Shown here one piece after another: positions 8,967 to 38,772 of a DNA stretch of 56,925 bases. The stretch covers positions 1 to 56,925 of IMG/VR virus record IMGVR_UViG_3300013137_000023. The stretch is one strand, 5' to 3'. Each line of letters starts with the position of its first letter. The stretch's first letter is position 1. Under the pieces are notes generated by a model. The model had not been told where the DNA came from, ran no database searches, and saw only the letters and a program-made list of their open reading frames with translations. The position numbers and the translations under genes were made by a program. This stretch comes from a virus (Duplodnaviria > Caudoviricetes).

Positions 8967-8995
8967 ATCATACCACAAAAAAACACGGATGTCAA
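8967..8995 (-). promoter_or_regulatory. sigma70-type promoter with extended -10
   Basis: TTGACA-17 nt-TATGAT with TGn. Confidence 0.75.
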
Positions 8996-17455: not shown

Positions 17456-20400
17456 CTAATCTGCGAATGCTTCTTGAATTTCCATATATTCTGGTCTTGC
17501 TATCCTCGGTAGCCGTTTTAGGTCGGCAACTTCGGGAGCAATCATTTTTAATAAATGATCTTGTATCCCCTTTTTATTGGGAATAATCATATCATCAAGA
17601 TCGGCTTTTTCGTTGTGTTTTGTTATCCAGGCCATAGCCTTGTCAAGTTTCTTGTCTCCCCGTTCTTCTTTGCCCTGGGTCATATCAAAAATAGCTGAAG
17701 CTATCAACCAATTGGCTTTTTTATTATATTTAGTAGCACGTTCAGTAAGTAATATTCTGGCATTTTCTTTTTCGTAAGCACGGGACATAGTAGATGGCTG
17801 TAAACCAAGACCCTTCATAAATATATCCCATGAATCAACGTCTGCTATTGGTTTATTGGCCGGGGTTCTGGATCCTTCCAGCGCCCATCTTCCGGCAACA
17901 GTTAGATTCCTAACAGCTTCAGGGGCGAGTGCTTCTGCTGCCCGTTGCGGATTATCATAATCTCTATACATATTATATGCACGTCCAACTCTTAAAGGTA
18001 TATCCCCGGCAACACCAGTTATCATTCGCCCGACTGCCGGATAGACACCCTTTTCAATGTCAGAAGTCATTTCTTGTATACCGAGAGAACCGGAAATGTC
18101 CCATCCAGCAAGATAAGGAACTCCGTGTAATATTGTGTCAGTAATATTTTTTGGTAACGCCTTTTTCATTTCAGTTTTGGGGTCATATCCCGATATTTCA
18201 GCTGCTTTAATCAGGTCTTTAATTAGAGGAAAACCGCTAATACCGGCTAATCCAAACATGGTTGCCAACATTCTTGACCATACAGGGAAACCACCATTCT
18301 TCATAAAATACTTTTTTAAGAGAGATAGATAGTTTCCCATAAAAGTTCTAAATATCATAATAGAGGAACCAACACGGCCACGGGCTATCTCTGGTCTGTT
18401 GGCCTTAGTATAATCGAATTGTGTTTCCTTCACTATTTGTTCTGCTTGTTTAATGGCTTCTGCATGAGACAAACCTTTTGCAATAGAAACATTATAACCG
18501 GCTATCATAGATACAAATCTATTGAATTTTTCGGCCTTGTCAAACATGAAAGAGGATATGTTGGTAGCTCCTGGGTCTGTAAGTCCCATTCCCGGTCTTG
18601 CTCTGCCACTTAATTCACGATACACTTGTGCAGATAAACTCCCCTCACTTATACCCTTATTAAGAGCATCCATTAAATCGGGGTATTTTGCCGAAAACTT
18701 TTTAGATGAAGCCATATACTCCATCATTTGCTTCATGGCTTTCGCATAAGCTATTTCTGGCGTTTTGGTATGTGCCGCAAGGACCGGATATGTAGTAATA
18801 ATGGTCTGCGTCAAGTTGACAAGAGCCGATTTTACGTTTAACCCCAAGTAATAGTGAAACATGAAGTTGCGCAAGGCATAGGCTTCTGGCTTAGAAGTCG
18901 TTACATAGTCTATATACCGCTTGGCATATCCATAGACACCGGAGTCACGCTTTTGGTCAATGGCATCAAACATCTGAGAATAATCAACTTCGGCCTTTTT
19001 GTTTGACACAAAATTTGTTATCCCAATAATATAATCAGCAAGGTTACGGTCGAGATTAACGCTGTACCCAGGAGTGAGTGCGGCATGAAGCATGTGTTCC
19101 GGGAAACCGGAGGCATATCTTCCGAACATTTTTTTCATGTGTTCGGCTAAAACTGGATCGGCAGTATTCAGAGAATTAATGGCTACCATCAGGTCAATAG
19201 GAATATTTTCATACGCTTCCGGGGCAGATTTCAATACCTCTCCATACTTTACTTTCCATCCTTGTTTTCTAAAGTCTGCCCGGAGTTTATTGGCCTCTAT
19301 CTGGCTGTCAGTCATAGCATACGATTTTACCTTGTCCTCAGCATCAAGACCAATAACCCATTTACTCCCAAACCTGGAAAACGGAACATAATTGGCATCC
19401 TTTAGGTCGGTAATAAACTCATCAACCTTTTGTATATATCGGTCCTGGGAGGAAAGGCCGTCTTTCCCTGGGGTTGTACTGTAATAATCTGCTTTGGCTA
19501 TTAATCCCTCTCTTAAATAGTCCAAAGAATTATTGGCAAAGTCTTTTATGGCTTGAACGGCATCAATTTCCGATTGATTAAATCCAAGTTTTTGAGCTTC
19601 AGCAATAGTATCGAACTTACCCCCCCTGACACGGGCCGCAAAAAGAAAAGACTTTACTTTGTCCTTAGAGGCTTCCGGTAATCCAATATATGGTTGGATT
19701 TGTTGTGCAAACTCATAGGTTTTTGAATCACGTTCAATAAATTTTTGGTCTGTTCTTTCCTTTATCGGGCCAAACTTATCAGGGAACTTCTGTTTAATGG
19801 TTTCGGGAAAGGCAAAGAAAGACTTAATAGACCGTTCTCCCGGCATAATTCTATTAGCAAAATAAGTAACTTCTTTGGGTGTGTCTATCTTCTCTGTTTT
19901 TTCATGCTGTCTTCCAGACCTGAAGTTATCTATGGTTTGTTTCAGGCCGTCTATGTATTGTTGTGCGCCGCCAAGACCGAAGCCAAGTGTTACCCCTTCT
20001 GTTCCTTCCTGTTTTGTAATGCCGTCAAATAGTCCCTTGTCTCTCTCAGGACTACTTTTTTGCTTTCCGGTGATAATTTCTGATACATCTTCCCTGATTT
20101 TGTCGTAAGCCCATTGTTTTGCTTTTCCTGGGTTTTCTCCATTTCCTATCCTCCTTGCCGCTTCGTTAAGCGTTTCAGAAATTGGACCAAGATAATTCTT
20201 GTTTCGATCAAAAACATCAAGAATAACACCAGCTTCCTTAGAAATTCCAAGGCTTTCTTCTGTCTTTATAACATTACCAACACTTTCAAGTCTATTGGCG
20301 TTTCTACCAACAACCCCGAACAATTTTTTATCTTTTGATAAATTATTTCTTATATAGGCCGCTACTTCAGCTTTTTCTAATGCCAAAGATTCTGTTTTTG

Positions 20401-33912: not shown

Positions 33913-34874
33913 ATAAACATTTCTTTACCCCGACCTTCACGATGGGCGTAATAATATTCCCTGTATTTTTTACTTGATAAGATAATAGATAGCGGTTTTT
34001 CCATTATGTTCCCGAAAACAACCTCAGAATTAAAATCAGAACAACAAAGAATCATTTCCCCACGATAGTTAAACACCAATTTATTAAGGAAATTATGGCA
34101 TTGGCCGTTTTTGGCCCTGTGTTTTGGTTCGTAATTGACCTTCCCTCCCCTATTATAAAACGTAGGAAGCAGGGCCGGTAAACCAAAATGGGTCATTTTA
34201 GGGAAGGATATGTCTCCGGCCTTTGTTATGTCTTTAAGGTGATCGTCATAGTGATTAAAGTGAATAGAGTCCAGCCCTGTCTTAAAAAGTGCTTCAACAA
34301 CATCAAGGCGCATATTGGCCCCATTGGTTACTATCCTAACATAATTATTAGGCAATAAAGACTTAGTCATTTTCAGTAAAGTAACAATGCGGCTGTCAAG
34401 CATCGGTTCACCGTTAAGAAACGGGTGAATATCACCAGTATATCCGAAGTCTACTAATTGCCTTATAATGCGTGCATATACTTCCATAGGCATCAATCTG
34501 TCGGGTGATGTTTCTCTGTCTTTATTCGGACACCAGTCACACTTGCGATTGCAATAGTCTATGGTTTCAATGTTTATCGACTTGATGTTGCGTAATAGTC
34601 CTATGCGTTCTGCACGTCTGGAAAGGTCTGTTTCGTAATCTTCATTAACCGGCCAAAACTCTTCAAACCTACCGTTTGGACTTAATTCTTTCAGCCTGTC
34701 GTTCATTCGCTTTCCAGACCAATAGGCTTCGGCTACCAGATTAAGCCCGTTCTCAAGGACTTCACGGTCAGAGATATGCTTTTCCATCAGGTCATAAATT
34801 TCCCTATGGACTTCACAGATATAGCGCCTCGGAGATGAACCAACCAGTAATTCGTCTGTTGTTTCTTCTCTCAT
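33888..34874 (-). CDS. Radical SAM enzyme with SPASM/twitch domain
   Basis: CNRKCDWC, GEP, TNG; C...GEMILCCSD...GNI...CREC. Confidence 0.9.
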   Translation of the reverse strand: MREETTDELLVGSSPRRYICEVHREIYDLMEKHISDREVLENGLNLVAEAYWSGKRMNDRLKELSPNGRFEEFWPVNEDYETDLSRRAERIGLLRNIKSINIETIDYCNRKCDWCPNKDRETSPDRLMPMEVYARIIRQLVDFGYTGDIHPFLNGEPMLDSRIVTLLKMTKSLLPNNYVRIVTNGANMRLDVVEALFKTGLDSIHFNHYDDHLKDITKAGDISFPKMTHFGLPALLPTFYNRGGKVNYEPKHRAKNGQCHNFLNKLVFNYRGEMILCCSDFNSEVVFGNIMEKPLSIILSSKKYREYYYAHREGRGKEMFMCRECNII

Positions 34875-35470
34875 TATCTACCTAAAATAGCCCAAACATA
34901 TGTTATATCTCCACTAAGTGCTTTTACCACATACCTTTCCCAAAATATCAATTCGGTATTGGTTGTTTTCCTGAGCACATCAAGATCACTCATGGTAAAC
35001 CCGTAGTCAAATTCGGGGTCGTGATACGAGTCTTCGCACGGTATATTCATAATAATTGTTGAGTGTTCAGCCATAACATTACTGATATTCTTATATCCTT
35101 GTTCCCGATCCTCCGGCCTGACGTGCTCTAATGAATCAAGGGCCAATACCCTTGTAAACCCACCATCAATAGTAGGAAGGTTAAGTATATCCGTATGCCT
35201 GACATCAATACCCAACCGTTCCTTACCATGCTTGGCATATATGTCCGAAACATCAGTGGCTACATAATTAACATTGTTCAGCGTAATAATACGGATTGTT
35301 GCGGCTATAATCCCAAGCCCGATTCCTATCTCAAGGACATTCTGGTTTATCCAGTTAATATCATATATCCTTCTTGCAATGGCCTGCCGCTTAAAAATAT
35401 TATCCCGGTAGTTCTTCCCCGTTTTCTGAATCGCTTCCTTATTCCAGTAATCCACTTCTGTTGTTCTCAT
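34874..35470 (-). CDS. Class I SAM-dependent methyltransferase
   Basis: VLEIGIGLG; ALDSLEHV. Confidence 0.8.
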   Translation of the reverse strand: MRTTEVDYWNKEAIQKTGKNYRDNIFKRQAIARRIYDINWINQNVLEIGIGLGIIAATIRIITLNNVNYVATDVSDIYAKHGKERLGIDVRHTDILNLPTIDGGFTRVLALDSLEHVRPEDREQGYKNISNVMAEHSTIIMNIPCEDSYHDPEFDYGFTMSDLDVLRKTTNTELIFWERYVVKALSGDITYVWAILGR

Positions 35471-36526
35471 TTATAACAGGCTCCTATATAGGCCTTTAAG
35501 TTCACTATTGTTGTAATCCATAGCCAAATCACGGCGGCGCTTCCAAATATTATTTCTACATTCCCTGTGTTCCGCCCACCTTTCGGCCAATTCATTCAAT
35601 GAATCAACCGTTATTCCTAACCCCAATCCCTCTACTGCCTCCGATGATTCCTTTGCGTTGATACATACCGGAGGAACCCCGGAGGCTATGTAATCATAAA
35701 GTTTGTTTGGTAGAGTCTGTTGCCATTGGGGGCTGTCGATTAGATTTCCAACCAGGCCCCAATCGTGGCGACTTATCTGCTTTAATAGCGTCTTATAGTC
35801 ATACCCTTGATGGACAAAAACCATAGGATCATAAAATTTCTTGAACGGCTTATCCTCACGTCCGGCGTATAGATGAAAATCTATTCCACATTCCAACGCT
35901 TGTTTAGCTACTTGCTCATAGTTGCAGTAATCAGCTCCCGTATTTAGATTCATTCCGGCGTATTCGCTCGGAAGCGTCACACGGCCCTCATATACAAGAC
36001 CGCCCATCCATTCTTTGGTATGGTATTGATAAAGACTGTAAGGGACATAGGAAGGAAGAATTATATAGGGTTGTCTCAAGGCAAATTCGTCTACCGTTAC
36101 TTTGGCGACACTGTCAGACACAAAAACAAGAGCATCGGCAAGCTGAAAAGAGTTTCGTTCCTCGGTTGTTACCCTAACGTGGGGAAGTCCTTCAGACATG
36201 GATTTACGGTAATCCTCGTCCGTTGTTCTGGTTAAAAAGGTATCGTGAACGTCTAATATGACTGGTTTGTGGGGAAATATCTCTTTAATAGCGCAGACGA
36301 ACCATGACGGTTCATTGTGAACATGGAAAATATCAGCGTCCGAGTGGAGCTTAATACCCTCTATGAATTGGCCTATGTCGCTGTAATTTATAAATGATTT
36401 ATAGTATTGTGACCAATTAATTACTTTTTTTGCAATAACGTGAACATCTAAACCGGATTCAATAAGGGGAAGGGCAATTTTTGTGACCCTAATGCAGAAA
36501 TGACCAGAAACCATTACTATCTTCAT
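35471..36526 (-). CDS. GT-B (GT4-like) glycosyltransferase
   Basis: ADIFHVHNEP...ILDVHD; LPNKLYDYIASGVP. Confidence 0.8.
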   Translation of the reverse strand: MKIVMVSGHFCIRVTKIALPLIESGLDVHVIAKKVINWSQYYKSFINYSDIGQFIEGIKLHSDADIFHVHNEPSWFVCAIKEIFPHKPVILDVHDTFLTRTTDEDYRKSMSEGLPHVRVTTEERNSFQLADALVFVSDSVAKVTVDEFALRQPYIILPSYVPYSLYQYHTKEWMGGLVYEGRVTLPSEYAGMNLNTGADYCNYEQVAKQALECGIDFHLYAGREDKPFKKFYDPMVFVHQGYDYKTLLKQISRHDWGLVGNLIDSPQWQQTLPNKLYDYIASGVPPVCINAKESSEAVEGLGLGITVDSLNELAERWAEHRECRNNIWKRRRDLAMDYNNSELKGLYRSLL

Positions 36527-36837: not shown

Positions 36838-37485
36838 CTAAGCGCTGTCCCACTTAACTACACGGTTATCGGGATCACCCTGCCAGATCAGCTCAAACCC
36901 CAAAATGGCAATCCAGCCGATCCGTTTGTCACGGCCCATGTCGTTGATCTCAAACCGCAATTCCTCCGGTAAGGCAACGGCCTCCATGACCGCATCTTTG
37001 CCAAAGAAATAGGCTTCACCGGTGATGTTGGAAGTCCCAATGGCGTTGTCCATGCTGTTGGTGTCACGGACAAAACGAACATTGTAGTACTTACCGACCT
37101 CTCCATTTACTGGATATTTGGTGTACTGCCAAATCGACTCCAGGCTGTCATGGATACCCCGGAAAGCGGTTACGGTACAGATGGCCATATAATCGTCCCC
37201 GCCCTCCATCGGGGGAACAAGCATAGTACCCATCATGTAATCCACAACCGATTTCACACCGGCGGCATTCATATTGACAGAAGCCGTCAGGGTAGCGGTT
37301 CCATTTGTGGTAAAGTTACCAGAGGTGGTGGTAGAGGCCACATAGCGAACTTTAGCCGCATCCATCTGCGCCTCGACCCTCTTGTCAATAACCTTGACCT
37401 GATCGTTTTTAAGAGCCTCTACCTGAATGTTTTTGATATTCAGGGTAGCAAGGTTCTCGATCTTGCCCGTGTAACTCGTACTATT
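36838..37485 (-). CDS. Major capsid protein (N4-gp56-like family), exon 2
   Basis: NSTSYTGKIE...NGEVGKYYNVRFV...EAYFFGKDAV...DMGRDKRIGW; spliced product 306 aa. Confidence 0.85.
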   Translation of the reverse strand, partial: NSTSYTGKIENLATLNIKNIQVEALKNDQVKVIDKRVEAQMDAAKVRYVASTTTSGNFTTNGTATLTASVNMNAAGVKSVVDYMMGTMLVPPMEGGDDYMAICTVTAFRGIHDSLESIWQYTKYPVNGEVGKYYNVRFVRDTNSMDNAIGTSNITGEAYFFGKDAVMEAVALPEELRFEINDMGRDKRIGWIAILGFELIWQGDPDNRVVKWDSA

Positions 37486-37758
37486 CATTTACGTTAATGG
37501 CTAACTGTTTATGAAAGCCCTATCGGTTTCCCGATAGATCAGACCATATCTTCCGTTTCCGGTCGTGCGCTCGTGGAGCTTTACTGTCCGTTCTGGACTC
37601 CATGCTCTGGTCGTTGAACCTTCAGCCCATTCCTGGGCAGCTTGGTTGCTGATTGTCCAATCCTTGGAATTTTTATAACCATCACGCCCATCGTTACCAA
37701 TCACGTTGTGGTTTTCAAGGCTCTTAGGATTTCCCAGCAATTCACACGATATTTTTTC

Positions 37759-37787
37759 TTGACTTCCTTCTATGTTTCCGGTATAAT
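37759..37787 (+). promoter_or_regulatory. sigma70 promoter for the intron endonuclease (antisense to capsid mRNA)
   Basis: TTGACT-17 nt-TATAAT; AGGAG SD at 37806-37810. Confidence 0.8.
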
Positions 37788-37815
37788 ATACTCCATAATT
37801 AAACAAGGAGTAACC

Positions 37816-38496
37816 ATGAAGACAAGTAAAGATTATAGAGAAACCAAAGAAGCAATTTGTAAGTGTGGATGTGGACAAACCTTCTACCCTGTAAGGTTTT
37901 GGGGTAAGGCTAAATTTCCTGAATATATCAGGGGCCATCATCCGAATTGTCGCAAAAAGCAATTTGGACTTATCCCGGCATGGAATAAGGGAATGAAAAA
38001 AAGAGATCATCCTTCTCTTGAACGAATGGGATTTCAGGTCGGCCACAAATCTTTCTTTAATTGGGGGAATGTCCATGAGATAATGGATAAAAACCCATCT
38101 ATTAGAGAAAAATGGCTTAATGCCCAAAAAGGTAAAAAGCCGTGGAACAAAGGGCTTACAAAAGACCTTTATAAAAACGGGATTAAGTCTGGCCCGGAGC
38201 ATGGTAACTGGAAAGGCAATAAGCGTGGCATATACGACCTTGCTATCCTTAAGGAGTTTACAAAGCATATCCTTAAGAGGGATAATTATACCTGCCAACA
38301 GTGCGGAGATCATAATTATCTTGGCCGTGGTTCCCGTATAAAACTTAATGTCCATCACATTATTGCTATTAAAGAAGATGTTACCCAAGCTCTGAATCCC
38401 CAAAACGCCACAACCTTATGCTATGACTGTCATGTTAAAACCGAAAACTATGGAACAAAACTTATCCATAAAAGAAGAAAACAAGCGGGCAATTAG
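37816..38496 (+). CDS. HNH homing endonuclease with NUMOD-like DNA-binding repeats
   Basis: CKCGCG; PAWNKG/PWNKG; HGNWKG; RDNYTCQQCG...LNVHHI...NATTLCYDCH. Confidence 0.9.
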   Translation: MKTSKDYRETKEAICKCGCGQTFYPVRFWGKAKFPEYIRGHHPNCRKKQFGLIPAWNKGMKKRDHPSLERMGFQVGHKSFFNWGNVHEIMDKNPSIREKWLNAQKGKKPWNKGLTKDLYKNGIKSGPEHGNWKGNKRGIYDLAILKEFTKHILKRDNYTCQQCGDHNYLGRGSRIKLNVHHIIAIKEDVTQALNPQNATTLCYDCHVKTENYGTKLIHKRRKQAGN

Positions 38497-38499
38497 TTT

Positions 38500-38772
38500 A
38501 CCCAATTCTTCCATGGTCAGAGTACCCTTGTAAATCAAGAGTTGGGTCACGGGCATGGTGTTGGTTTCAGTTAAAACACCGCCCTCGGTAGCAAGGTTGG
38601 AAATCTTATCGAAATTCAGATTTTCCCCTTTGCCCTTACCAAAGGCTTCCTTGACGGTGGTGAACTGACGGAATTTTGCCAGGGGCTGCGCTTGCATCCG
38701 CCATTTCGTGCTTAAATAGTCATTGGACAAATAGCTTCCAAGACTATTAGTCACCCATACGTTTCCAGCCAT
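38500..38772 (-). CDS. Major capsid protein, exon 1 (91 codons)
   Basis: MAGNVW...AQPLAKFRQF...GKGKGENLNF...KGTLTMEELG; GGAGG SD; follows scaffold gene. Confidence 0.85.

Follow-up and report, generated by a model that had tools for sequence, protein, structure and literature searches.

A capsid-gene group I intron with an antisense HNH endonuclease gene and a candidate promoter, found across divergent phages

In the usual picture of mobile introns, the endonuclease gene is looped out, lies in the sense orientation and is expressed from the transcript of the host gene; the phage HNH intron endonucleases I-HmuI and I-BasI are sense-oriented nicking enzymes. The locus described here raises the question of how an endonuclease gene that lies on the strand opposite its intron is expressed, and what this orientation does for the intron and for the gene that it interrupts. 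The locus belongs to a complete virus record of 56,925 bp (CheckV completeness 100), the whole of which was analyzed and is referred to below as the window. Judged by its SU10-type portal and by a capsid related to that of coliphage PTXU04, the carrier is an uncultured, podovirus-like phage. We think that the orientation of the HNH gene is best explained by an uncoupling of the nuclease from the capsid message, and we consider it probable, from sequence comparison, that the element is a mobile capsid group I intron with an autonomous antisense homing endonuclease cassette driven by a host-type promoter.

According to the ORF list of the window, the region from 12.7 to 46.9 kb is tiled by long minus-strand ORFs, and the SU10-type portal (PF23899, E=4e-22) lies within this block. 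The major capsid gene is also on the minus strand and is split into two parts by a group I intron (Table 1). Both parts match the major capsid proteins of coliphages PTXU04 and Bas95 and of Vibrio phages with 31–35% identity (32 records), and the PTXU04 record labels its own copy "putative major capsid protein". Alignment of the two pieces to the intronless PTXU04 and Bas95 proteins places the junction at ...EELG|NSTS..., with exon 1 ending at 38500 (...GAA TTG GGT) and exon 2 starting at 37485 (AAT AGT...). In 12 intronless loci, namely viral contigs L004–L013 and the two coliphages, the stretches that match the two exons abut without any gap, and this defines the intron boundaries and length given in Table 1. 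Joining the exons restores a capsid frame that is colinear with these 12 homologues. A 99%-identical copy of the locus is present on a second viral contig (L003).

Table 1. Coordinates of the features of the split capsid gene, its intron and the antisense HNH gene (positions in the window)
Feature	Position	Strand	Details and basis
Candidate sigma-70-type promoter TTGACT-17-TATAAT	37759..37787	+	-35 at 37759-37764, -10 at 37782-37787; enrichment in relatives
Shine-Dalgarno AGGAG	37806..37810	+	5 nt before ATG
HNH homing endonuclease gene	37816..38496	+	226 aa; antisense to intron; ATG 37816, TAG 38494-38496
Group I intron	37486..38499	-	1014 nt; first base 38499, terminal G 37486; exon junction and Rfam core
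Ribozyme core (P2-like hairpins, P3-P9)	37520..37817	-	RF00028; consensus fold of 17 introns; blastn
P1 hairpin	38486..38504	-	Exon UGGGU 38504-38500, 9-nt loop 38499-38491, guide GCCCG 38490-38486
Major capsid protein exon 1	38500..38772	-	91 codons, ends ...EELG; ORF list, PTXU04/Bas95 alignment, tblastn against 12 intronless loci
Major capsid protein exon 2	36838..37485	-	215 codons and stop, starts NSTSYTGK...; ORF list, PTXU04/Bas95 alignment, tblastn

The sole Rfam match in the window is to the group I model RF00028, which is aligned over its full length (model positions 1–253) to 37817..37520 on the minus strand with a score of 71.1 bits, against a gathering score of 50, and E=4.2e-16. 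By blastn, the core resembles introns of Bacillus, Staphylococcus and Listeria phages. The intron starts after a U and ends in a G, and its P1 helix pairs exon UGGGU with GCCCG, leaving a U.G pair at the splice site. The element is thus a group I intron, and it is predicted to be self-splicing. Two minor features of its 5' end may be mentioned here. P1 followed by CTTGTTTTCT is flagged by our scan as a terminator-like site on the capsid-sense strand, with a weak stem of 5 pairs, two of them G.U. In addition, the exon 1 frame stays open for 27 codons into the intron (minus strand, 38416–38499, stop at 38416–38418), so that ribosomes on exon 1 would pass through P1 before reaching the stop; the frame likewise runs on in most relatives, as a by-product of the antisense HNH C-terminus.

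The HNH gene lies wholly inside the intron, between P1 and the ribozyme core, and its 226 codons are in frame with a listed 284-aa ORF. Its position opposite the intron strand, together with the TTGACT-17-TATAAT and AGGAG motifs that precede it, had been noted in the preliminary description; all of this is read directly in the sequence, and both the layout and the candidate self-carried promoter recur in divergent relatives, as described below. Residues 160–210 of the product match PF01844 (HNH; E=1.2e-6) with 29 bits, the cut-off being 21.4, and hits to HNH endonuclease families were also obtained in PHROG. The catalytic His, Asn and His and the two CxxC zinc pairs (C160, C163, H181, N197, C202, C205 and H206) are invariant in an alignment of 35 sequences. 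The protein is predicted to be a zinc-ribbon HNH nuclease. The nearest solved HNH structure by sequence is the GVE2 phage enzyme 5h0m (E=2.5e-7), which is also the top hit (E=6e-3) among the weak HNH-domain matches that Foldseek returned for an AlphaFold model. In that model (mean pLDDT 71.9) the HNH domain reaches pLDDT 85–96 and the N-terminal 135 residues are poorly defined; because this region is poorly modeled and the Foldseek matches are weak, the structure does not inform the DNA-binding part of the enzyme.

Among 159 candidates, 108 are HNH homologues at E<=1e-3, of which about a hundred are of similar length with ∼32–62% identity and one is 94% identical. No named close relative was found: of the 175 records from a tblastn search against named phages, none reached 60% identity or covered 80% of the protein, the nearest being partial matches of ∼26–39% identity. 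A search of viral and genome contigs with the HNH alignment returned the generic HNH pattern in distant genes, with at most 47% identity over partial lengths.

To what extent is the antisense arrangement peculiar to this phage? A metagenome scan with an alignment of the HNH family gave 63 loci, and we analyzed the 20 best (L141–L160), whose HNH proteins are 43–68% identical. In 16 of these 20 close relatives, RF00028 matches the strand opposite the HNH gene and abuts its start. With the HNH gene set as plus, all 18 group I matches found by Rfam in these 16 loci are on the minus strand, and each locus has one match that ends within ∼35 nt of the HNH start; the 16 loci score from 51.8 to 85.6 bits. 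The other four are a locus with a truncated core motif at the contig end but the same layout by eye (L155), one with a diverged core in which, by eye, the exon 2 junction and the layout of the promoter match those of the others (L151), and two in which the HNH gene is cut by a contig end (L143 and L160). The antisense layout is therefore a family trait, present in at least 17 divergent phage genomes and always in the capsid gene. It is a stable architecture, opposite in design to the usual one, and not a one-off. Second RF00028 matches were also observed further downstream in the capsid gene at L145:2819–3111 (85.6 bits) and L144:1–265 (50.4 bits), on the minus strand relative to HNH, suggesting that some relatives have two capsid group I introns.

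All of the introns analyzed interrupt the same capsid motif, at two sites that are 8 nt apart (GGT|AAC TCG GT|T CC). The window and twelve loci use the first site, ...GGT|AAY, and L148, L150, L152, L157 and apparently L151 use the second, ...AACTCGGT|TCC. Both sites are preceded by CGGT and both are served by the guide GCCG, with different P10 triplets. The shift from one site to the other could have come about by reverse splicing or by altered nuclease specificity.

Comparison of these introns also bears on the pairings at the splice sites. A U.G pair is found at the 5' splice site in all 16 loci of the P1 table, and P1 position -4 shows a compensatory swap from C:G to G:C in the window, L145 and L147; the pairings with GCCG or GCCCC in L142, L144, L145 and L156 were assigned by eye, our script having chosen another G. 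The P10 triplet, made up of the three bases 5' of the P1 guide, covaries by eye with the first three bases of exon 2 (AUU/AAU, GUU/AAC, UUU/AAA and GGA/UCC), imperfectly in L145 and L154. A terminal G precedes exon 2 in all 17 aligned introns. We found no supported long-range stem that would close off the ORF between P1 and P2, the duplex energies in 16 loci having z values of -2.1 to +1.1 relative to shuffles.

The end of the HNH gene overlaps these guide elements, an arrangement first pointed out in the preliminary description. The P1 loop of the window intron holds both the complement of its stop codon (intron nt 4–6) and the P10 guide AUU (38493–38491), and the three sense codons before the stop, Ala-Gly-Asn (38485–38493), are the complement of the P1 guide and of AUU. 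Since the gene runs to intron nt 4, the C-terminal Gly-Gly/Ala-Gly-Asn tail is an antisense reading of the guide, and as a consequence of the overlap many family members end in Gly-Gly-Asn, -Lys or -Ser. The stop complement is at intron nt 4–6 in 14 of 16 loci, at 7–9 in L142 and at 29–31 in L148. The overlap is thus the rule but is not obligatory.

This geometry had led to the proposal that the HNH transcript acts as a cis-antisense RNA on P1 and the 5' splice site, and by read-through on exon 1, placing an early hold on capsid splicing or translation and separating homing from late expression. A transcript from the candidate promoter would necessarily be the complement of the intron from nt 4 to ∼705, and with it of the 3' strand of P1; as there is no plus-strand terminator-like site between the TAG and 38798, it could plausibly read through the 5' splice site into exon 1. 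The layout is also conserved in the relatives, and a physical link by an antisense transcript between a phage intron and the gene of a homing endonuclease has been published for the psbA intron and F-CphI of cyanophage S-PM2. As far as the S-PM2 account describes it, the F-CphI gene is free-standing outside the intron and in the sense orientation and the antisense RNA is a separate, non-coding one, unlike the arrangement in the window; the same system serves as a model of how endonuclease genes enter introns as independent cassettes. What favors the regulatory proposal is geometry only, and compaction of a mobile element explains the overlap equally well. The P1 overlap has been lost in L148, where the intron persists, and the duplex energies in 16 loci gave no conserved pairing beyond plain complementarity. 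Because the capsid gene needs a very high late output, a strongly inhibitory antisense RNA would also be costly. We therefore regard a regulatory role of the transcript as improbable.

The distribution of the intron bears on its mobility. In a tree of capsid exon 2 (23 rows, with six loci of <190 residues dropped), the window capsid groups with the intronless L004–L013 (support 100/100), and the two intronless coliphages fall together with ten other capsids whose genes carry the intron (100/100). The closest capsid relatives of the window are therefore without the intron, which is present or absent at a fixed site in a patchy pattern, intron-bearing and intronless genes being interleaved on the tree. 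No RF00028 match was found in any of the eight intronless loci scanned. The window HNH protein is 48–59% identical to those of the ten intron-bearing relatives, whereas capsid exon 2 is only 34–44% identical. Among those ten loci themselves, HNH and capsid identities are similar and correlated, and over all 55 pairs, which include the ten with the window, the means are 57.8 and 55.4 with a Spearman coefficient of 0.56. This correlation fits long vertical co-inheritance as well as it fits homing, and the distribution as a whole is consistent with mostly vertical descent in one clade and at least one transfer into the window lineage, or with repeated loss. In the nearest intronless relatives, L004–L012, the upstream codon ends in GGG or GGC and not GGT, so a transfer into such an allele would need co-conversion to supply the splice-site U.

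Separately, we note that the intronless coliphages PTXU04 (L001:1477–1518) and Bas95 (L002) carry an uninterrupted TTCGGT|AACTC that is identical to the exon flanks of intron-bearing relatives. Laboratory tests are thus feasible with the capsid genes of these two cultured phages as substrates.

Another possibility is that the nuclease serves mainly as a weapon against co-infecting relatives, with homing secondary, as reported for the intron endonuclease of PhiPA3 (PMC11620839). In favor of this, the predicted target lies in an essential gene, in a conserved motif that divergent phages have in common. The same observations also fit homing, and the two functions are not mutually exclusive. The patchy distribution of the intron and the greater similarity of HNH than of capsid in the window comparison fit transfer of the element itself. 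We give a mainly offensive role a low probability.

Under the autonomous-cassette reading, the HNH gene would be transcribed from its own promoter, and the evidence for that promoter comes from its position and from its relatives. The candidate matches the consensus at 11 of 12 positions, is the best of 33 sites in the 30–45 kb region and ends 28 nt before the HNH ATG. Matches of this quality occur three times in the window on both strands together, and only the one at HNH has a perfect -10 and a 17-nt spacer. HNH is the sole plus-strand gene in a minus-strand block; since all flanking genes are on the minus strand, there is no upstream plus-strand operon to supply its transcript. To compare the relatives, we took windows of 90 nt upstream of 17 HNH starts and 5000 background windows from the same DNA, and scored both against the sigma-70 consensus, which may not be the consensus of the host. 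A best -35/-10 score of 9 or more was reached in 9 of the 17 upstream windows and in 6.1% of the background, of 10 or more in 4 of 17 compared with 0.9%, and of 11 in 2 of 17 compared with 0.04%, figures whose independence is overstated because these loci are relatives of one another. A hexamer resembling TATAAT can be seen by eye at the homologous place in about 15 of 17, with a clear -35 in about half, and a GGAG, GAGG or AGGA core lies within the last 20 nt before the HNH start in 10 of 17. The -10 ends 5–8 nt before the ATG in L145 and L152, and by eye also in L148, L157 and L151, which is the spacing expected of leaderless mRNAs.

Could these hexamers instead be by-products of RNA structure and AT-rich linkers, with HNH silent, decaying or otherwise expressed? 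The candidate -35 falls within a linker 5' of P3 and the candidate -10 within a small hairpin upstream of P3, where the hexamer coincides with the loop and the 3' strand of the hairpin. This strand, UAUAC, is conserved by eye, and part of the conservation of the -10 may therefore serve RNA structure and not transcription; RNAalifold predicted no consensus pairs 5' of P3 in the 17 introns. The -35 is weak in 8 of 17 loci, and scans covering the whole window gave a total of promoter-like sites that is not above shuffled expectation, so that the case for a promoter rests on position and on conservation in relatives. Against a silent gene, all 16 relatives examined keep the HNH frame intact, as do about 100 protein clusters of 45–62% identity, which requires selection and hence expression. 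With all neighbors on the minus strand there is no other source of a plus-strand promoter, and the close placement of the -10 in the five loci just listed also speaks against a by-product. We consider this explanation very unlikely. Practically no weight can be given to the idea that the real intron gene is a 300-aa intron-sense ORF (37501..38403) with the HNH frame as its shadow. This ORF is among those listed for the window, and in 7 of 16 loci its frame has no stop for 192 codons or more. It starts with TTG, however, extends across the ribozyme core and gave nothing above noise in Pfam (best E=0.76), and 5–8 stops break its frame in 9 of the 16 relatives, all of which keep HNH intact; by these comparisons it is itself a shadow frame, and we rejected it.

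The statement in the preliminary description that phage intron endonucleases are mostly sense-oriented is a fair one, but antisense cases are already in print. A literature search of main texts outside subscription journals for antisense or opposite-strand endonuclease genes in phage or bacterial group I introns gave only one such case, in mycobacteriophage LittleE, and the eukaryotic I-DirII. In LittleE (Pope et al. 2013, PMC3706429), RT-PCR and protein sequencing demonstrated the splicing of an element that resembles that of the window: the intron is of group I type, it interrupts the major capsid gene of a phage, and its endonuclease gene is antisense. The LittleE ORF is LAGLIDADG-like and not HNH, the phage and its host are unrelated to the window phage, and the passages of that paper on the intron give no promoter, position relative to P1, guide overlap or intron family. 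I-DirII, in a nuclear rDNA group I intron of Didymium iridis, is likewise antisense to the host transcript and has its own promoter (Edgell et al. 2011, PMC3073962), that of the window being a candidate. As presented there, it differs in being eukaryotic, in its Pol II promoter, spliceosomal intron and poly(A), in its rRNA host gene and in its nuclease family. I-PfoP3I is, as in the window, an HNH nuclease of a phage group I intron (PMC3428280); in the part of that report describing it, it is sense-oriented and nicking, whereas the window HNH is antisense, lies between P1 and P2 and has its HNH domain at the C-terminus. The antisense layout is thus rare and already published. What is new is how large and how old the family is, together with the candidate promoter in the 5' part of the intron, the end of the gene in the P1 loop with a dual-coded guide, and the two insertion sites 8 nt apart.

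The model that we favor for the autonomous cassette has the following steps. Using the promoter inside the intron, host RNA polymerase would make an HNH transcript that does not depend on the capsid message. The enzyme would then nick or cut the intronless capsid alleles of co-infecting relatives near ...GGT|AAC TCN GT..., and repair would copy the intron and the HNH gene into that allele. The intron would splice itself out of the capsid pre-mRNA, so that coat protein is still made. The antisense orientation would keep a translated frame out of the ribozyme transcript and would uncouple the dosage of the nuclease from the late gene that is usually expressed most strongly; heavy convergent transcription late in infection probably damps the nuclease promoter. 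In about 1 kb, the locus offers a natural system in which to study how a very highly expressed gene accommodates convergent transcription, the folding of a ribozyme and the dosage of a nuclease. The coding of guide and protein tail in the same bases, like the pair of insertion sites 8 nt apart, is relevant to the co-evolution of intron and endonuclease specificity.

A broader reading, which we hold to be doubtful, is that backward, self-promoted cassettes are a recurrent adaptation to life in the most heavily transcribed late gene: early firing by the host and late shut-off by convergent transcription would make up a switch that needs no regulator, with guide and protein tail written in the same bases. 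If this were true, the promoter would be active while intronless co-infecting genomes can still be converted, and a move to a new target site, such as that between the two sites 8 nt apart, would change the RNA guide and the protein tail together.

The two other 11/12 promoter-like sites in the window differ in their surroundings. One, at 8967–8995 on the minus strand (TTGACA-17-TATGAT, with an extended -10 TG), is strong and has a sensible context; the other, at 19003 on the plus strand, lies antisense inside a 1881-aa ORF. Downstream of the capsid gene, at 34874–36526 on the minus strand, a family-4 glycosyltransferase (351 aa) and a class I methyltransferase (198 aa) are encoded inside the structural block.
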